From an uncultured Acidobacteriota bacterium (lineage in GTDB: Bacteria; Acidobacteriota; Vicinamibacteria; Vicinamibacterales; CAVVIG01), in contig CAVRVW010000002.1 in assembly GCA_963724695.1 (NCBI GenBank), forward strand, positions 76,868-140,867: a stretch of 64,000 nt of DNA, read 5' to 3'. Below are positions 34,474-46,439 of this stretch, piece by piece. The notes below the pieces were generated by a model, which had not been told where the DNA came from, searched no databases, and saw nothing but the letters and a program-made list of their open reading frames with translations. Each line of letters starts with the position of its first letter. Position 1 is the first letter of the stretch. A program made the translations under genes and the position numbers.

Positions 34474-35154
34474 CTACCATGCGGCGCTGTCGGCCAGCAC
34501 CAGCGCTGCTTCCTGGCGGACGCGTCCCGCCGGAATCGAGGCGTCCGCAGCGCAGAGGCGGGACAGCATCGCGCGCTTGTCGGCCCCCGTCACGAGCCAG
34601 AGAACGCGCCGCGCGCGGTTGATGATCGGGAAGGTCAACGTCATGCGCCGCCGCTCCATGTAGACGCCGGTCAGCGCGACATCACGGTCGACGACGTCCA
34701 GGACGGGATCGCGGGGAACCAGCGACGCGGTGTGGCCGTCAGGCCCAAGCCCGAGATGCACGAGGTCGAGCACGGGGGGCATGCCGGCGATCTGTTCGAG
34801 GAGACGCGCATGGCGGCGCGCGCCCATCTCGACATCCGCCTCCTCGACCGGCATGGCGTGGATGTGATCCGCCTGGAGCGGGGCATGTTCGAGCAGGCTC
34901 TTCTGCAGGTGTGTCAGGTTGCGGTCGGGATCGCCAGGCGGGGCGATCCGTTCGTCCACCTGGGTCACGTGCACGTCCGGCCACGGCACATCTTCGTCAG
35001 CGAGCGCGCGAAGCATCATCAACGGCGTGCGGCCGCCGCTGACCGCCATCACGAACCGGCCCCGCGCCGCCACACCAGCCCGTGCCTCGGCCGCAATCAG
35101 TCGGGCGGCGGCTCCGGCTACGGCGTCGGCGTCGGCGAAGACTCGCGGCTCCAC
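34474..35154 (-). CDS. pgl: 6-phosphogluconolactonase
   Basis: SGGRTP, VDER, LGLGPDGHTASL, RMTLT. Confidence 0.9.
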   Translation of the reverse strand: MEPRVFADADAVAGAAARLIAAEARAGVAARGRFVMAVSGGRTPLMMLRALADEDVPWPDVHVTQVDERIAPPGDPDRNLTHLQKSLLEHAPLQADHIHAMPVEEADVEMGARRHARLLEQIAGMPPVLDLVHLGLGPDGHTASLVPRDPVLDVVDRDVALTGVYMERRRMTLTFPIINRARRVLWLVTGADKRAMLSRLCAADASIPAGRVRQEAALVLADSAAW

Positions 35155-35155
35155 C

Positions 35156-36183
35156 TCACTTGACCGGCTTTTCGTGATGCCCGCCGAACTGGAAGCGCAT
35201 CGCCGACAAGCACCTTGTTCTGGAAGTCGGCCTCGCCGCGCGACGAGAACCGCTCGTAGAGGGCCGCGGTGAGCACCTCGGCCGGCATCGCCTTCGTCGA
35301 TGGCCGCCAGGATGGTCCAGCGCCCCTCGCCGGAATCCGACACGCGCCCCGAGAAGTCGTCGAGGTCCGGCGACTTGAGCGAGCGACGCTCGCCGTCAGG
35401 TCGAGCAGCCACGAGGCGACGACGCTGCCCGCGCCGCCAGACCTCGGCGATGTCCGGCAGGTTGAAGTCGTACTGGTAGTGCTCGGGATTGCGCAGCGGC
35501 GTCGTTTCGGCGTCCACCTCGCGTCCCCGCTTCTTGCCGACGTTGGCGTGCTTCAGGATGTTCAGCCCTTCGGCATACGCCGCCATCAGGCCGTATTCGA
35601 TGCCGTTGTGGACCATCTTGACGAAGTGGCCGGCGCCGTTCGGGCCCGCAGTGGAGATAGCCGTCTTCGGCGGTACCGCCGACGCTTCTCGCGTCCGGGC
35701 GTCCGCGCGACATCGCCGCGGCCCGGGGCCAGGCTCCTGAAGATCGGGTCGAGGTGCTTCACGATCTCCGGCTCGCCGCCGATCATCATGCAGTAGCCCC
35801 GCTCGAGCCCCCACACGCCGCCGCTGGTGCCGACGTCCACATAGTGGATGCCCTTCGCCGCCAGCTCCTTCGCGCGCCGGATGTCGTCGACGTAGTACGA
35901 GTTGCCGCCGTCGATCAGGATGTCGCCCTTCTCGAGGTGCGGCAGGAGATCGGCGATCGCCCTGTCCACGACGCCAGCCGGCACCATCAGCCAGATCGCG
36001 CGCGGCTTCGCGAGCTTCTTGACGAGGTCCGCCTGCGAGGAGGCGCCGACCGCCTTCTCCTTGGCGAGGTCTGCCACCGCCTTGCGGTGACATGTCGAAC
36101 ACGACACACTCGTGGCCGCCGCCGATCAGCCGGCGCACCATGTTCGCCCCCATTCGTCCCAGGCCGATCATTCCGAGCTGCAT
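35156..36183 (-). CDS. gnd: Decarboxylating 6-phosphogluconate dehydrogenase (short type); frameshifted
   Basis: [40 protein letters not shown]. Confidence 0.92.
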
Positions 36184-36205
36184 GCCCGCGTCCCTCTTCT
36201 CGTCA

Positions 36206-38840
<2,635 letters not shown>

Positions 38841-39744: not shown

Positions 39745-40362
39745 ATGAAGAGCTTCGTGACGCGTGCCGGATTACTCCTCGCCGTCTTGGCGGCTGCCTG
39801 TTCGTCTTCGACGCCAGCCCCACCTGTACCTCGCGTTCCCGAGCTCTGGGGAGATCTCACGCCGGTCGTCTCCGTCAAGGAGCTGATGCGCGACATGCTG
39901 GATCCGCTCTCCGACAACATCTTCAACGCGGTGGGAGACGTGGTCACCGAAAAGGGTGTCGTGCAAATGATGCCGAAGACCGACCAGGACTGGGAGAAGA
40001 TCCGAATCGGGGCAGTCACGATGGCGGAAGGGGCGTATCTGCTCAAGATTCCCAGGCCGTTCGCCCCGCCCGGAGACCTGAACAACAGCACGGGCCCGAA
40101 CGCGCCGGAGTTGTCGCCCGCGCAGATCACAGCCAAAGTCGAAGCTGACCTGGTCGAGTGGAATGCCAGGATCGAGGCCCTGCGAAACGTTGGGCTCGAG
40201 GTGCTCGAGATTGTGAAGCGGAAGGACGTCAACGAGTTGTGGGACGCCGCCGAAAACCTCGACCAGGCGTGTGAGAATTGTCACCGCAGCTACTGGTATC
40301 CGGGCGAAGACGCCAAATTCTACGAGAAGCTCAGAGATCGTCTTCAGGAACTGCCGCGATAG
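39745..40362 (+). CDS. Lipoprotein with C-terminal CxxCH (cytochrome c'-like)
   Basis: Lipobox LAAAC; CENCH near the C-terminus after predicted helices. Confidence 0.75.
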   Translation: MKSFVTRAGLLLAVLAAACSSSTPAPPVPRVPELWGDLTPVVSVKELMRDMLDPLSDNIFNAVGDVVTEKGVVQMMPKTDQDWEKIRIGAVTMAEGAYLLKIPRPFAPPGDLNNSTGPNAPELSPAQITAKVEADLVEWNARIEALRNVGLEVLEIVKRKDVNELWDAAENLDQACENCHRSYWYPGEDAKFYEKLRDRLQELPR

Positions 40363-40445
40363 GATTCTCAAGGCGGAACAGGGAAAAGTCGCGGTCGACG
40401 CTCCGGGAGCGGGCATAATACCGGCGCTCGCGAAGGAGCGTGCCC

Positions 40446-40817
40446 ATGTCCTTGAACCAGTCGACCCGAATCAGTGCGCTCGCCATCATCGGTCTTGCCG
40501 GTGCGGCCGGCGGCGTCGTTCTGTTCGGACAGGTGAGGCAGCCCCCAGCATCCGCGCCCGCCCAGGCCGCGCTCTTCACTGACGCCCAGGCGGTCACCGG
40601 CAAGGCCCTGTACGACAAGACCTGCGCCGGGTGCCACGGCGTGTCTCTCTCCGGGGGGACGGCGCCGCCGCTGACCGGCCCGTCATTTCAATCGAGCTGG
40701 GGCGGTCCGCGCGTGACCCTCGACGATCTGTTCTTCATCACCTATGCCGCCGGCGGCCGCCAGTTCATCGCGGTCTCGTCCGGAAGCCCGTCGGCGCTTC
40801 CGTCGGAGTCACGATGA
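40446..40817 (+). pseudogene. Internally deleted cytochrome c-PQQ dehydrogenase remnant
   Basis: CAGCHG domain is cut before the axial Met and joined to ITYAAGGRQFIAV, a PQQ-dehydrogenase C-terminal motif. Confidence 0.65.
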
Positions 40818-41707
40818 AGAAGAGCAAGACGCTGCAGGAGATCGCGAATCGGCTGAAGGCTCGCCCGGGCAGGAAGATTCGCCTGAAGGACTGCGACCCC
40901 GGATGGACCGGATCAATCCGGGACAGGACACAGTCGGAGGCCCTGCTTGCCGACGGCATCCGGCGGCTCGCCAGGCAGCAGAACATTCTGTACGCCGAGA
41001 ACCGGCATTCGCTGCTCCTCATCTTTCAGGCGATGGATGCGGCCGGGAAGGATGGGACCATCCGCCACGTGATGTCGGGCGTGAACCCGCAGGGCTGCCA
41101 GGTGTTCAATTTCAAGGTCCCGTCCGACGAAGAACGGGATCACACGTATCTCTGGCGCTCCATGAAGGCCCTCCCAGAGCGCGGGCGCATCGGCATCCAC
41201 AACCGCTCCTACTACGAAGAAGTCCTGGTCGTCCGCGTGCACGAGGAGATCCTCAGAGCGCAGCAGCTGCCGGAACACTTGAAGAAGAGCGACATCTGGA
41301 AGCGGCGCTTTCAGGAAATCAACGACTTCGAGCGCTATCTCGTCGAGAACGGCACCGTCGTCCTGAAGTTCTTCCTCCACGTGTCGAAGGACGAGCAGAA
41401 GCGGCGTTTCCTGGAGCGCATCGACGAGGAGGACAAGAACTGGAAGTTCTCCGTCGGCGATGCGAAAGAGCGGGCATTCTGGGACGACTACATGTCGGCG
41501 TACGAGGACGCGTTCAACCACACGAGCACGGAGGCGGCGCCCTGGTACATCGTGCCGGCCGACAACAAATGGTTCACGCGCCTGGCCGTGGCGGCGATCA
41601 TCTGCCAGACCCTCGAGGGGATGGGTCTTGCCTTCCCCAAGCTGACGCGCGCGAAGACCCGGGAACTGCAGGAAGTGCGGCGCCTGCTGCTCGCGGAAAA
41701 AGGCTGA
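40814..41707 (+). CDS. ppk2: Polyphosphate kinase 2 family protein
   Basis: QAMDAAGKDG, NRSYYE, KFFLHVSK, APWYIVPADNKW. Confidence 0.92.
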   Translation: MKKSKTLQEIANRLKARPGRKIRLKDCDPGWTGSIRDRTQSEALLADGIRRLARQQNILYAENRHSLLLIFQAMDAAGKDGTIRHVMSGVNPQGCQVFNFKVPSDEERDHTYLWRSMKALPERGRIGIHNRSYYEEVLVVRVHEEILRAQQLPEHLKKSDIWKRRFQEINDFERYLVENGTVVLKFFLHVSKDEQKRRFLERIDEEDKNWKFSVGDAKERAFWDDYMSAYEDAFNHTSTEAAPWYIVPADNKWFTRLAVAAIICQTLEGMGLAFPKLTRAKTRELQEVRRLLLAEKG

Positions 41708-41711
41708 ACCG

Positions 41712-42809
41712 TCAGTTTCCCGTCGACAATCGCTTCACGTACTTCGTCAGGCCCCGTACCGTGACCTCCGCGCCGTAGACCGTGCCCTCGGCGTCGACGG
41801 CGATGCCTTCACCGGACGCGCCCTCCGGCGTTTCTGTCAGGTGCGGCGGGATGAAGTACATCACCTTGCCGTCTCTCGCGCTGCCGATCCGGACGCCCTT
41901 CTTCCAGCCCGGGTGCGAGGTGCGGCTCGATTCGGAGTCGTTGGCGTACAGGGTGTCGTCCTTGATGAACATCCCGCTCACGCGGCTGAACTGCTTCCAC
42001 TCTTCGACGAAGGTGTAGTTCTTGTCGAACACCTGCAGGCGCACGTTGCCGCGATCGGCAACGATCAGCCGGCCGCGGGTGTCGAAGACCATCGCGTGCG
42101 GTGTGCGGAACTCGCCTGGCTCGGTGCCGAGACTGCCGAAGCTGCGCACGAACTTGCCTTCCTTCGTGAAGATGGAGATACGGCCCACGGTGCCCGGCGG
42201 GGGCGTCGCGTTCTGGCCGCCGTGCCCTTCAGAGATGAGGATGTCGCCGTTCGGCGCAAGGATGACGTCGCACGGCGAGTTGAGCGCTTCGGGCGGGTTG
42301 CCCGGCGTGCCGTCCTTGCTGCCGATCGTCATCAGGATCTTGCCCTCCGGGCTGAACTTGATGACGCGGTTGCCCTTGCCCTTCGCGTCGGGGAACTTCG
42401 CCAGCTCCTCGGCCGACGCCGCGCGCTCGTCGGTCACCCAGACGTTGCCCTCTCGGTCCACCTGGAAGCCGTGGGGGAAGATCATCGTGCCCGCGCCGAA
42501 GCTCCTCACGAGCTTGCCGGACGGATCGAACTTCAGAATCGGGTCGGCGGCCGACCCGGCGCACGAGTTGGCGCCGCACCGGTCGTAGGCCCAGACGCTT
42601 CGCCCGTCCGGGTCGATGTCCACGCCGGCTGTGGATCCCCACGTTCTCCCGGCGGGGAGCGTGCCCCAGTTCCGGATCGTCTCATAGGGGTTCGGCAGAC
42701 CGTTCACCGGCTGCACATCGGCTTGTCCGAAGGACGTCGAGCCGGGCGCCACGGCAAGAGCAGCCGTGGCCACGGCGGCGGCGAGCACGAATCGGATGGC
42801 TCGGGTCAT
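41712..42809 (-). CDS. Secreted NHL-repeat beta-propeller, PAL-like
   Basis: GGAG RBS, signal peptide, FPHGFQVD, SEGH, TPHAMVFD, VADRGNVR. Confidence 0.85.
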   Translation of the reverse strand: MTRAIRFVLAAAVATAALAVAPGSTSFGQADVQPVNGLPNPYETIRNWGTLPAGRTWGSTAGVDIDPDGRSVWAYDRCGANSCAGSAADPILKFDPSGKLVRSFGAGTMIFPHGFQVDREGNVWVTDERAASAEELAKFPDAKGKGNRVIKFSPEGKILMTIGSKDGTPGNPPEALNSPCDVILAPNGDILISEGHGGQNATPPPGTVGRISIFTKEGKFVRSFGSLGTEPGEFRTPHAMVFDTRGRLIVADRGNVRLQVFDKNYTFVEEWKQFSRVSGMFIKDDTLYANDSESSRTSHPGWKKGVRIGSARDGKVMYFIPPHLTETPEGASGEGIAVDAEGTVYGAEVTVRGLTKYVKRLSTGN

Positions 42810-42828
42810 GGTTTTCTCCATCGATGGC

Positions 42829-43302
42829 CTACTTGATCGCGTTGGCGCCCGCCTGCGACACCTGCTCGTCCTGCACGGCCTGCACGCCGCTCGTGCCGAC
42901 CGCGCCGATGAACTCGCCGCCCCGCACGATCGGAACGCCGCCCGCGAAGGTGATGCCGTTCGGCACTTCCTTGACCGTGCCTTCCTTGAGCTGGGCGCCA
43001 TACGCCGAGGTGGCGAGCTTGGACGCGACGACGGTCGCCGCCTTGCGCATCGCGATGTCGTAGGACCGCGCCGACGCGCCGTCGAGGCGCCGCAGCATCA
43101 CGGGGATCCCCGCGGCGTCGGTGACGACGATGCTGACGTTCCACTTGTTGCGTCGAGCTTCGGCTTCGGCGGCTTCGATGGCCTGCTGTGCCAGCGCATA
43201 GGTGAGCGCCTGGGGCGCCGCGGCCGGTTGCTGTGCGTTCATGAGGAAAGAAAACGCCAGGATGAAGATGAGGACGGTTCCAACAGTCGAACGACGAATC
43301 AT
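42829..43302 (-). CDS. Secreted GlcG/HbpS family heme-binding protein
   Basis: AAGGAG RBS; SIVVTDAAG, RLDGA, IAMRKA, GGVPI, GAVGTSG, QDE. Confidence 0.88.
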   Translation of the reverse strand: MIRRSTVGTVLIFILAFSFLMNAQQPAAAPQALTYALAQQAIEAAEAEARRNKWNVSIVVTDAAGIPVMLRRLDGASARSYDIAMRKAATVVASKLATSAYGAQLKEGTVKEVPNGITFAGGVPIVRGGEFIGAVGTSGVQAVQDEQVSQAGANAIK

Positions 43303-43320
43303 CGTGATGGCTCCTTGGCC

Positions 43321-43352
43321 TGTTGAGAATGTTGGTGCTGAGAATGTTGAGA
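43321..43352. repeat. Direct repeat TGAGAATGTTG x2 upstream of the heme-binding gene
   Basis: Copies at 43324-43334 and 43339-43349. Confidence 0.6.
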
Positions 43353-43403
43353 GTTGATGACGGGCTGTCATGAGTTGCGCTGCTGCAGAGACGAGCGGGG
43401 GTG

Positions 43404-44306
43404 CTATCTGCCGACGACGACGGTGATGTCTTGAGACGTGTACAGGCCGCCGTCGTGGGCGAGCGCCCGTACGACGTAAGTGCCTGGTTCTGCGAAGGTC
43501 GCGCGCGCCTGCCACGTGTTCGCCTCGGGGATCGGCGGCACCATGAAGCCCGACGACCACGGCGATCCTCCGCCGTCCCTCGTGTCTTCCCACACCTTGG
43601 TCTGCGGCGGATCGAAGGTGACCGCCCTGCCTGGCCCCCGATAGACGAAGAAGGACAGACGGAGGCCATTGGCGCCCTGCGGGAGCGTATAACTGCCGCC
43701 CGTGAGCGCCGGCATGTTCCGCTTGTTCGGCTTCCCATCGTCGGTCGCGATCGCCGCGAGCGCCACCGGCTCGCCGACTTTGGCGGTGCGGCTCTTCGCG
43801 CCTTCGATGCTCAGCGTCGGGGCCTTATTGCCGACCATGTCGGGTGAAGTGCTGAGGGCCCCGCCCGCGCCGATGTTCGACATGATGACCGTGTCGTCGA
43901 GCACGTAGTCGGGCCGCAGCGTGCCGAACGCCTTCTCCGTCCGGCCCTTGCTCGTGAGCGTCCAGACGATCTCCTTGGTGCCGAAGTCCTTCGGCACGCG
44001 GACCGTGAAGACGAAACGGTTGCGACGGGGGAAGAAGTGCGTCGGCTGACCGAGATCCGGGCCGCCCGGGTCCATGGTGTTGCCCGGGCCAAGCGAGATG
44101 GTCGTCTCCTTGTCCCACTCGCGGTTCATGTACCCGAACACGAGATCGAACGAGCCGTCCTCTCGCGCCAGCCAGCCTTCGTACACAGGTGAGATGTTCA
44201 GGTCGGCCTGGGACACCTGTGCGCGCAGCGGGTGGAACGCCGCGACGGCAAGAACCGCCGCGCTCGCGGCGACGAGGAACCGTCGCAACGTCTTCGGCGC
44301 TTCCAT
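43404..44306 (-). CDS. Secreted hypothetical protein with Ig/PKD-like C-terminus
   Basis: Signal peptide, PVYEGW, FGYMNR, QPTHFFPRR, FAEPGTYVVRA; starts 3 nt after the monooxygenase stop. Confidence 0.75.
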   Translation of the reverse strand: MEAPKTLRRFLVAASAAVLAVAAFHPLRAQVSQADLNISPVYEGWLAREDGSFDLVFGYMNREWDKETTISLGPGNTMDPGGPDLGQPTHFFPRRNRFVFTVRVPKDFGTKEIVWTLTSKGRTEKAFGTLRPDYVLDDTVIMSNIGAGGALSTSPDMVGNKAPTLSIEGAKSRTAKVGEPVALAAIATDDGKPNKRNMPALTGGSYTLPQGANGLRLSFFVYRGPGRAVTFDPPQTKVWEDTRDGGGSPWSSGFMVPPIPEANTWQARATFAEPGTYVVRALAHDGGLYTSQDITVVVGR

Positions 44307-44309
44307 ACG

Positions 44310-45759
44310 CTATTGCTGCTGGCCCGTCGTCAGGGGCGCGCGGGGCGCCGGGAGCTTTTCGAACGCGCAGAGCGGGCATCCTGGAGCGTCCTCGCCGGGC
44401 TTGAGGCCGAGACGCTGGCGCCGGGCGGCGACTTCCTCCTGGAACTTCTCGTCGGTGAGCCCGACGGCCTGCATGATCAGGATGTTCATGTTGTCGATCG
44501 ACCGGTGGCCCAGGCCCGACCAGTTGCGCGGGTCGGCGACGTTCCTGTTCGCCGGCGTGTTCTCGTAGTAGCCGGTCACGCGAAGGATCGTCCCGCGTGG
44601 CAGCAGCGGCGCGGCGTCGTCCGCGTACTGGTAGGCGCGGACCCAGCTGTGATCGTAGCCGGAGCAGCTCAGCGTCTCGATGCGCGAGCCCCAGATGGCG
44701 TCGAGGCACATCCGGACGGCGGCCGCATGCATGTGCGGCTCGAACACCGTGATCTTCATCGGCTGCGTGAGCGTCTGGAACGCTTCGATCTTCTTGCCGG
44801 AGTCGCCGCCACGGATGTCGATGTCGCCGGTGCCGACGGGGAAGATGCGCTCGTTCACCTTGGGCTGGTAGCCCTTCGGATGGAACTTGAACGCGACCTC
44901 GAGGTGGCCGGTCGTGTCCTTGCCATTCGCGTGCATGTGCACGTTCGGGAAGCCGACGCGCGAGCCGGCGCGCAGGAGCTTCCCGGCGTCGGGGTTGAAG
45001 ACGTCCGCGTTGCGCCCGACCTCGTGCACGGGCCAGCCGCCGCCGAGGCCCGCGACGCCGCTCTCGGCGGCGCCCGGAGCCAGGACGCTCATGAGCGCGT
45101 GATGGAAGATGAAGAGGCCGCCGACCGTGTTGGGTCCGGGCTTGCCCTGGGAATCGTTCACTTCCTTGATCTCGACCGCCGCGACGTAGCGATCTTCGGC
45201 GAGGCCCGTATCGGCGAACGCCGGCGTTGCCCCACCAGTCGGGCGTCACGGCCTTCAGGCTGACCGGGGGCGTCGAGACGACGAGATCGGGCGTGCCGAT
45301 GGTCCAGCCCTCGGCGCCGCCGAACACGAGCGGCTTCGGCATGTCGTCCGGGTTGCCGCGCGGCGCGCCGCTGTCCGCCCAGCGTGCGATCTTCGCCACT
45401 TCCTCGTCGCTGAGCGAGATGTCGTTCTTGTACTGCTGGATGCCGATGTCCTTCTCGATGTACCACGGCGGCATCGTGCCCTGCTTGCTGCGGATCGACG
45501 TGCGGCGCTTGATGGCCGACGCGTACGGGCGCGCCTCCTCGTAGGTGAGAAGCGACATCGGCGCGACCGAGCCGGGCCGGTGGCAGTTCTGGCAGCTGCG
45601 CTGCAGGATGGGCGCGATGTCCTTCGTGAAGGTGACCTGAGGCGTGGCCGCCGGGGTTTGCCCCCACACGACAATCGGCGCGGAAACCGCGAGAGCGACC
45701 GCACCGCCGGCGAGCGCGGAAAGCCGACGCCTCGAAGCGGTGGATGGCAAGAACGGCAT
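44310..45759 (-). CDS. Cytochrome c fused to a PHM-like type II copper monooxygenase; frameshift near 45225
   Basis: CQNCH and MPPW heme domain; FHHA, NVHMH, EPHMH and SIDNM match the CuH/CuM ligand pattern. Confidence 0.75.
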
Positions 45760-45977
45760 GTGCGGGTCCTCCTCGGACCAGGACGAAGTTACCGTCTGCT
45801 GGGTTCGACGGAACTCCGCGGATCATAGCGCGTCTCGGACGCCGCTCCATGGAGATATTTCGGGCGGTTTTTCACGCCGATTCTCAATCCAGCCGAGGGA
45901 AGGCCAGGTTGGTGGGACCGTGGAGGATGGGAAGAATGCAGGGCGCTCCGGCATTCGCCGGAGCGCCCTGTGGGTGG

Positions 45978-46439
45978 TTACCGGCCGTCGCGGTCGGCGT
46001 CGCCGGGCAGCGCACGTTCGACACGGTGCCACCCGTCTCGCACGGCATCCTTGGCGTCAGACCACGCCAAGCGCGACTTGTCCTTCGCGCGGTCCCAGCC
46101 GCGCTCGAGGCCGTCGGCCGCATCGTCCCAGGCAGCGTCGGTCTTCGCGCGCGATTCCCACCCATAACGGTAGGCGTCGCGGTAGTCGCCATAGTCGTAC
46201 CCGGTCTTCACGTAGGGACGGGTGCGATAGTTTGTGCGCCAATACGCGTCTTCGGCCGCCGGGTCGATCGCCTCGGCAATGGCGCCACCGGTGAGCCCGC
46301 CGGCGACGGCACCGACGGCTGCGCCGATCACCGCGCCGGCCGGGCCGCCCAGCGACGCACCCGCTGCCATACCCGTGACCGCGCCGCCCGCCGCCCCCAC
46401 GCCCTCGCTGACCGAGTGGTCCTTTTTCAAATTAGCCAT
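45978..46439 (-). CDS. Glycine-zipper hypothetical protein
   Basis: GAAGGAVTG and GAVAGGL zipper; EDAYWR, AYRYGW, DAVRDGW. Confidence 0.75.
   Translation of the reverse strand: MANLKKDHSVSEGVGAAGGAVTGMAAGASLGGPAGAVIGAAVGAVAGGLTGGAIAEAIDPAAEDAYWRTNYRTRPYVKTGYDYGDYRDAYRYGWESRAKTDAAWDDAADGLERGWDRAKDKSRLAWSDAKDAVRDGWHRVERALPGDADRDGR

Follow-up and report, generated by a model that had tools for sequence, protein, structure and literature searches.

The DNA considered here is a window of 64,000 nucleotides from an uncultured Acidobacteriota bacterium, which carries four minus-strand genes, here called A to D, at positions 41712..45759. On balance, we read the first two as encoding a periplasmic heterodimeric copper monooxygenase of the class of peptidylglycine α-hydroxylating monooxygenase (PHM) and dopamine β-hydroxylase (DBH), a C–H hydroxylase that would be fed by the cytochrome pool and carry a specificity lid. 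An earlier note on this DNA called the same four genes, over a span that we confirm, and proposed that they form an extracytoplasmic hydroxylate-then-cleave pathway resembling peptide amidation by animal PAM, with A in the place of PHM and D in that of the lyase PAL. As set out below, a bacterial peptide-amidation pathway is probably not what the four-gene cluster encodes. The genes are as follows.

Gene A, 45759-44310, minus strand: predicted exported haem c plus PHM/DBH-type two-copper monooxygenase, about 482 aa, frame broken near 45220
Gene B, 44306-43404, minus strand: exported tandem Ig-like protein, predicted partner subunit, 300 aa
Gene C, 43302-42829, minus strand: exported GlcG/HbpS-like protein, 157 aa
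Gene D, 42809-41712, minus strand: exported PAL-related NHL propeller, His/Glu subfamily, 365 aa

The A-B, B-C and C-D gaps measure 3, 101 and 19 nt, so the layout is one of two tight pairs, A-B and C-D; the tight spacing described in the earlier note holds within the pairs and not between B and C. All four N-termini have the basic n-region and hydrophobic h-region of a signal peptide by a charge and hydropathy heuristic, in keeping with what the note had read there, and no later 19-residue segment in any of the four exceeds a mean hydropathy of 1.21.

The pairing of A with B is the most constant feature of the locus. B directly follows A in 78 of 80 GTDB loci, or in 72 of 74 when only loci with 1.2 kb or more of flank are counted. 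Of 65 B genes in five further genomes, 62 adjoin an A, and a hidden Markov model (HMM) search of the window's genome gives 11 of 13. The two families also diverge together. Across 28 A/B pairs of one genome, G027, which is 99% complete at 3.9 Mb, the paralogue distance matrices correlate with a Mantel rho of 0.73, as compared to 0.41 for the best of 2000 permutations, and A and B have their nearest neighbour in common in 19 of the 28 pairs. The predicted A-B complex scores 0.91 and the best of three controls 0.00; this score is a model confidence obtained with custom alignments, a kind of input that the calibration did not cover. In that calibration, 116 of 157 solved complexes and 2 of 215 mismatched pairs attained the mark. 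The complex runs agree in at least 87% of contacts, with a predicted local distance difference test (pLDDT) value of at least 90 for the partner, and a PDB sequence search found no solved complex of this kind. The score supports binding of A by B, short of proof. On the basis of the adjacency, the co-divergence and the complex score relative to its controls, the conserved unit of the locus is A plus B, with B as the constant partner.

In the model, the interface on A spans both copper domains (residues 174-181, 225 and 274-277; 310-329 and 411-429) and includes H277 and M427, two of the candidate copper ligands described below. Its conserved core comprises D177, D317, D412, W416, G420, R422 and D425 of A and P40, R62, R95 and D137 of B. 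Two B loops, at approximately 141-158 and 194-212, vary freely in length and sequence and are modelled at the copper cleft of A. B is thus predicted to dock across both copper domains through the conserved core, with its two hypervariable loops reaching into the active-site cleft, where it may serve as a lid that tunes substrate access. The B model itself consists of two tandem Ig-like domains, in agreement with the Ig-like protein 3 nt from A in the earlier note. Its structural matches are generic Ig folds (best Z 6.6), so no function can be read from the fold, and a PDB search with the B sequence returned no match. We rejected B as a copper chaperone, as it has no conserved His, Cys or Met.

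The modelled geometry invites a second reading of the pair, in which B is the substrate rather than the lid and A modifies a residue of a B loop a single time, which would mature B or create a protein-derived cofactor. The one-to-one gene pairing, the co-divergence and the placement of the B loops at the copper cleft would all be expected in that case. However, the loops that enter the cleft are hypervariable and share no residue that could be modified, B contains no invariant His, Cys, Met or Tyr, and many intact A copies have no adjacent B. We give this reading hardly any credence and retain B as the putative lid.

For gene A, whose frame is broken in the assembly, P0006 was used as the stand-in in modelling, and residues of A are numbered as in P0006. 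This is an intact 485-aa protein that is 98% identical to the gene A product over the C-terminal 302 residues. Its AlphaFold model (mean pLDDT 88) shows a helical domain at about 43-137 followed by two β-sandwiches at about 158-440. Foldseek places DBH first (4.6e-10) and PHM second, and alignment with VIA-align gives a tie between DBH (4zel_A, Z 20.0, root-mean-square deviation (rmsd) 3.6, 293 residues aligned) and PHM (6ala, Z 19.8, rmsd 3.1, 248 residues aligned). The nearest unrelated fold lies at Z 8.0, and against 48,161 chains a Z of at least 8 was obtained for PHM and DBH only. The PHM fold anticipated in the earlier note is therefore what the comparison returned, with Z of about 20 versus 8.0 or less for unrelated folds. 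The PHM and DBH entries that match the model best are closed conformers, according to PMC9064607. Residues 43-137 resemble the cytochrome PccH (Z 7.6) in a wide structure search, and the Pfam match of this haem domain, to PF13442, is under the cut-off. Identity to PHM and DBH in the structure alignments is just 12-13%. The residues that would bind the haem and the two coppers, CuH and CuM, are listed below.

45580..45594, minus strand: CxxCH haem c attachment motif (C59/C62/H63), kept in 42 of 42 G027 paralogues
45472..45474, minus strand: M99, putative distal haem ligand, invariant in 120 of 120 aligned rows and in 42 of 42 G027 paralogues
45099..45104, minus strand: H222 and H223, predicted CuH ligands, invariant; the family profile puts this HH on the HH of DBH
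44937..44939, minus strand: H277, predicted third CuH ligand, in an HxH like the HYH stretch of DBH, from the alignment, the DBH profile and the paralogues
44727..44741, minus strand: E343-P-H345-M-H347, with the predicted CuM histidines; E343 is at the position of PHM Arg240, which is Gln in DBH
44487..44489, minus strand: M427, predicted CuM Met, kept in 41 of 42 G027 paralogues and assigned by position and conservation

The role proposed for M99 is the one known for the distal Met of class I cytochromes c. In 120 aligned A sequences, C59, C62, H63, M99, H222, H223, H277, H345, H347 and M427 are invariant or conserved above 90%. A 23-row profile of more distant A members reaches DBH in the PDB at E 1.1e-5 with the HH, HxH and HxH elements in register, such that five histidines of A are aligned to DBH by sequence, and Met427 by position and conservation. 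The corresponding DBH ligands are His262, His263 and His333 at CuH and His412, His414 and Met487 at CuM, as given in PMC4846438. The fold match and the conservation of the haem and copper ligands place A, as modelled, in the PHM/DBH (copper type II) superfamily, and the cytochrome c-copper monooxygenase fusion of the earlier note stands, with its CxxCH followed by an HH...H...HxH...M pattern on a PHM/DBH fold. Other sequence searches were silent: PDB searches with the C-terminal half of A or with a close-relative profile found neither PHM nor DBH, PHM itself is unmatched at E 10 by both the close-relative and the distant-member profile, and NCBIfam gave no named family above cut-off for the five proteins scanned.

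Membership of the superfamily does not make A a PHM. In PHM, Asn316 and Tyr318, which follow the CuM Met, have functional roles; mapped by spacing from that Met, these positions are Ile429 and Ile431 in A, and among the 42 G027 paralogues the first is Asn in one and the second is Tyr in none. The position of Arg240 is Glu in 24 of these paralogues, Gln in 12, Arg in one and another residue in 5. The PHM residue forms a salt bridge with the peptide carboxylate, according to the passages of PMC9064607 drawn on here. With Glu343 in place of Arg240 and neither Asn316 nor Tyr318 retained, A is by its sequence not a PHM in the strict sense (EC 1.14.17.3). Since an acidic or neutral residue at the Arg240 position would favor amine-bearing or neutral substrates, Glu343 points to a substrate of this type over a Gly-extended peptide.

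The fused cytochrome also raises the question of whether A is an oxygenase. It could instead be a copper-haem oxidoreductase that oxidises a substrate and hands the electrons on, through its haem, to the respiratory chain, or one that reduces a small nitrogen oxide. Fused cytochromes are the usual exit route for electrons in periplasmic dehydrogenases, the identity to PHM and DBH is low, and nitrite has been bound in PHM crystals, judging from PDB titles. Nevertheless, 41 of 42 paralogues retain every ligand of both copper sites, the CuM Met among them, and the characterised proteins with this fold and these ligands are all monooxygenases within the portion of PMC4846438 that we cite. We consider an oxidoreductase improbable and continue with A as a putative monooxygenase.

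As a monooxygenase, A would receive electrons from the periplasmic cytochrome pool through its His/Met haem, which would pass them to CuH and CuM in place of ascorbate. The earlier note had likewise let the fused haem c replace ascorbate, and the conserved distal Met makes such an internal electron relay a reasonable proposal. Like ascorbate in PHM and DBH, the haem would deliver electrons to the coppers one at a time, in two steps; O2 would be activated at copper, and a C–H bond of a small organic substrate would be hydroxylated. Each A-B paralogue pair may take a different substrate, with the B loops helping to set specificity. Pyrroloquinoline quinone (PQQ) dehydrogenases, which are numerous in these organisms, are a plausible electron source for the cytochrome pool, and the hydroxylated products could in turn feed these dehydrogenases, whereby electrons would be returned. 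The likely role of such a system would be the catabolic activation of diverse dissolved organics.

Several observations weigh against this assignment, in addition to the limits on the complex score given above. The proportion of A copies with an adjacent B varies between genomes, from 31 of 42 in G027 to 13 of 22, 17 of 32, 1 of 4 and 1 of 5. Neither P0002 nor P0006 matches a copper-monooxygenase Pfam model (PF01082/PF03712), and PF03712 matches only 7 of 30 relatives at E 0.01, two of them above cut-off. No neighbour that points to a substrate was found among the A loci examined. Finally, the proximity of PQQ dehydrogenases to A in G027, where 17 of 72 matches lie within 5 kb of an A versus 8.2 expected by rotation, is gone at 2.5 kb (7 of 72 versus 5.5).

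The A family is large. G027 contains 42 A matches without internal stops, of which 41 keep all haem and copper ligands, and copy numbers of 25-42 occur in some genomes; the earlier note overlooked this expansion as well as the fact that the constant partner of A is B and not D. The G027 contig C1 (loci L091-L146) holds 42 A, 31 B, 21 PAL-like and approximately 72 PQQ-family genes, so that exported redox enzymes are expanded here to an extreme degree. Among representatives at 50% identity, 11,909 match A at E 0.001, many of them probably through the cytochrome part only, and 673 match at 1e-30; the public labels are "hypothetical" or "cytochrome c". A was detected in 24 of 60 genomes of the order and B in 12 of 151 Acidobacteriota genomes. 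The 80 named A loci are mostly from Vicinamibacterales. Five of the loci with typical A-B pairs (L010, L040, L011, L042 and L058) come from records titled Bifidobacterium, Bifidobacteriaceae or Acidimicrobiia and are probably mislabelled Acidobacteriota bins. Clustering of neighbours over the 80 loci gave no third conserved gene; the recurrent neighbours, at 13-18 of 80 loci, are ankyrin, DUF1592, DUF1552, PQQ and NHL proteins, which are other exported paralogue families. A literature search found no study of the bacterial A family; the main papers on PAL structure and PAM evolution were outside its reach.

Some members of the family depart from the common pattern. An A paralogue at L124 (G027:C1:2108075-2109133) has the haem domain and no copper ligand in the alignment, and is either a protein with a different C-terminal domain or a pseudoenzyme. 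The longer relatives P0224, P0248 and P0186 have a redoxin (AhpC/TSA) domain or EF-hands fused to the haem-monooxygenase module, which suggests other electron routes. In the B-less paralogues at L121, L122 and L123, Leu or Trp occupies the Arg240 position and the Met lies in a DEEM/DDEM-like context; they form a separate A subfamily, which may work without a lid.

We next consider genes C and D, which gave the locus its resemblance to PAM. C matches PF03928 (HbpS-like) at E 4e-30, above cut-off, and PDB 6BWS at 1e-14, so the family named in the earlier note is correct. The haem binding attached to that name is a mere label here. In HbpS and PduO-C, haem binding is attributed to an N-terminal His, and the 157 residues of C include no His and no Cys; the orthologous region in the same genus is also without His. 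C follows A-B in one of the 67 loci that have 4 kb of flank; of eight loci with more distant C homologues, one (L156) has an adjacent A.

D matches NHL in Pfam at E 4.5e-11 and an NHL propeller at E 1.5e-12, which identifies it by sequence as a six-bladed NHL propeller. In a plain search with D, TRIM-type NHL domains outscore PAL; sequence comparison nevertheless puts D in the PAL branch of NHL propellers. The zinc histidines of PAL are numbered 585, 690 and 786, Tyr654 is catalytic, and Arg533 and Arg706 are functional. Mapping of D to rat PAL numbering through a full-motif bacterial paralogue pairs Arg533 with R77, His585 with H113, His690 with H238 and Arg706 with R253, and puts H196 at Tyr654 and E334 at His786; these six are the key residues of D. 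The three-His zinc site of PAL, as described in the part of PMC8358657 used here, is hence incomplete in D, with H113 and H238 kept and Glu334 in place of His786. His at the Tyr654 position recurs in 34 of 35 relatives, and since the His/Glu pattern is complete in 33 of the 35, D belongs to a conserved subfamily and is not a decayed PAL. It is probably a metalloenzyme with a reaction of its own, such as a metal-dependent lyase or hydrolase acting on its own substrate.

The distribution of these genes does not tie D to A. The whole A-B-C-D block occurs in one of 30 relatives, a genome of the same genus (G001), and this is also the genome of the single block found among 67 loci (L018; L018 and L082 are one genome). 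An NHL gene follows A-B on the same strand at 2 of the 67 loci that have 4 kb of flank. Conversely, A, B or C lies within 1.5 kb at not one of 29 D-type loci in other genomes, so that the synteny of the NHL gene, on which the earlier note let its proposal depend, does not hold. D-type genes occur without A at E 1e-60 in 7 of 26 genomes, with the same result in three of these rechecked at E 1e-10; A is missing from G029, G195 and G205 (97-99% complete), in which D-type genes number 7, 8 and 6. The neighbours of D-type genes are heterogeneous (49 of 86 candidate open reading frames (ORFs) scanned).

These results bear directly on the proposal that the four genes are a split bacterial PAM in which D would be the lyase, C would handle haem and the substrates would be Gly-extended peptides or N-acylglycines. 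The shared strand, the short gaps and the export of all four products are compatible with it, as are the PHM fold of A, the equivalents of R533, H585, H690 and R706 in D, and the presence of the block in a second genome of the genus. The proposal fails, however, because the block is confined to that one same-genus genome, A has Glu at the Arg240 position, D shares with its subfamily the replacement of Tyr654 by His and of His786 by Glu, and D-type genes occur in genomes without A; the absence of Tyr at the Tyr318 position in all 42 paralogues and the lack of His in C add to this. We regard it as very improbable. Adjacent to A-B in this genus only, C and D were added there from the pool of exported enzymes to which A and B also belong.

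A PAL-like enzyme encoded elsewhere is a better candidate for cooperation with A-B. In such a scheme the carbon that A-B hydroxylates would adjoin the nitrogen of an amide or amine, and the carbinolamide would be cleaved by a PAL-like paralogue with the full motif, not necessarily D. All six PAL residues are present in 12 of the 21 PAL-like NHL proteins of G027, and the Tyr in 16; 5 belong to the D type. Six of the 80 loci (L031, L050, L053, L054, L063 and L066) contain a one-strand B-A-PAL run in which A is of a different subfamily and PAL has the full motif; the run converges on a second A-B pair. Similar runs occur at L105, L125 and L126, and the six are a better test of a split bacterial PAM than is the window locus. 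Over five genomes, 11 of 105 cases show an NHL gene no more than 2.5 kb from an A, as compared to 2.7 expected under a uniform model, and all 18 genomes with at least three A copies have both the full-PAL profile and the D type. The genomes counted are kin, and these co-occurrence counts are descriptive rather than independent.

Other data limit this scheme. Under a rotation null in G027 the NHL-A proximity is not significant (3 of 21 versus 1.5, P 0.18), and PAL-like NHL genes are found near PQQ dehydrogenases more clearly, with 11 of 21 within 2.5 kb versus 2.8 expected; PAL-like proteins may thus act on the products of PQQ enzymes. PQQ dehydrogenases are likewise present in 18 of 18 multi-A genomes. 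Of 35 genomes with the full-PAL profile, 15 have no A at E 1e-60, and copy numbers do not track each other (5 A and 23 NHL in G028). When genomes without A were searched with a strict pattern, the complete Tyr-type motif turned up at 3 of 13 loci, each in a different genome; a miss in this search does not count as an absence. We consider cooperation of A-B with a PAL-like enzyme elsewhere unlikely, although more probable than the four-gene pathway. The simplest reading is that the A-B, PAL-like and PQQ families expand together in periplasmic oxidisers of many substrates, with occasional real operons.

These elements can be combined into a more speculative picture, which we hold to be possible at a probability well short of even. 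The Vicinamibacterales of soils and sponges would possess a periplasmic toolkit of dozens of self-wired PHM/DBH-type hydroxylases, each tuned by an Ig-like lid of its own bearing antibody-like loops, PAL-like propellers of both the Tyr and the His/Glu type that cleave carbinolamines or carbinolamides, and PQQ dehydrogenases that oxidise the alcohols or aldehydes and send electrons back to the haem. If true, bacteria would be running, catabolically and without ascorbate, the chemistry by which animals make neurotransmitters and amidated hormones.

The break in gene A itself is most likely an assembly error. Relative to contigs from runs X1 and X6 the window has a single extra base near 45220, which the same-genus genome also lacks; P0006 is intact, and 13 of 25 A loci in the window's genome are split over more than one ORF. 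Repair of the frameshift, suggested in the earlier note, accordingly requires the removal of one base. A contig from run X2 that spans the site has one gap there as well. Elsewhere in the window, genes on the minus strand at 34474-38243 that resemble 6-phosphogluconate dehydrogenase, 6-phosphogluconolactonase and glucose-6-phosphate isomerase from their translations contain several frameshifts, so indels are common in the source assembly. The B-C gap contains a short imperfect tandem repeat (43320-43350, minus strand) with deletions of several bases in related contigs, which makes this gap variable.

No promoter-like sites and no minus-strand terminator-like sites were found in 41400-46200. 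One soil RNA run yields short contigs over A, B and D with a word share of 0.10, which is mute on co-transcription and is not evidence. Beyond gene D, the plus strand of the window carries an exported lipoprotein-like ORF at 39745-40362, with a CxxCH near its C-terminus and a weak cytochrome c' match (E 0.005). A short cytochrome c fragment (CAGCH) at 40440-40817, plus strand, ends in a segment resembling a PQQ dehydrogenase tail and has the appearance of a misassembly or of a quinohaemoprotein gene that has lost an internal segment. The convergent ORF at 40812-41707, plus strand, is by its motifs a putative member of the polyphosphate kinase 2 family; the scan of a probably out-of-frame translation gave no match.

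The interest of the locus lies in A-B as a variant of a known enzyme class, which concerns copper enzymologists; a claim of a four-gene bacterial PAM adds little. To our knowledge, the characterised PHM and DBH enzymes are all eukaryotic and use ascorbate. Among the questions open for these enzymes are the electron route to CuM and whether the open or the closed conformer acts in catalysis, as raised in the part of PMC9064607 referred to here. A bacterial PHM/DBH family with a built-in haem would offer a spectroscopic handle on both. Given its size, with up to 42 intact copies in a 3.9-Mb genome, the A family may also account for a major share of organic-matter oxidation that has gone unrecognised, and may supply biocatalysts for C–H hydroxylation.

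Among known systems, A is closest to the core of DBH and tyramine β-hydroxylase (human DBH, PDB 4ZEL), with which it shares the two-domain fold (Z 20.0), counterparts of the ligands, a profile match at E 1.1e-5 that includes the HYH stretch, and the lack of an Arg two residues before the first CuM His. It differs from DBH in having an N-terminal haem c domain where DBH has DOMON, a separate Ig-like partner in B, an identity of 12%, and a catalytic core stretch without cysteines where DBH has disulfides, and in being bacterial, exported and present in up to 42 paralogues per genome. It resembles rat PHM (PDB 1PHM, 1SDW and 6ALA) in fold (Z 17-20) and in the six-ligand pattern, and departs from it in Glu for Arg240, Ile at Asn316 and Tyr318, the internal haem, and the absence of a fused or tightly linked PAL. 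D shares with PAL the NHL propeller and the equivalents of Arg533, His585, His690 and Arg706; it is unlike PAL in His196 at Tyr654, Glu334-Gly335 at His786-Asp787, and an extra conserved Cys pair, C78 and C83. C is like the GlcG/HbpS proteins (PF03928; PDB 6BWS, 3FPV and 5CX7) in its family match and is exported like HbpS, and differs from HbpS in containing no histidine whatever. With respect to electron supply, lytic polysaccharide monooxygenase (LPMO) with cellobiose dehydrogenase and particulate methane monooxygenase (pMMO) with methanol dehydrogenase are extracytoplasmic copper oxygenases that are fed electrons through cytochrome. The parallel of A with these systems is a functional analogy only, as their folds and copper sites are unrelated to those of A.

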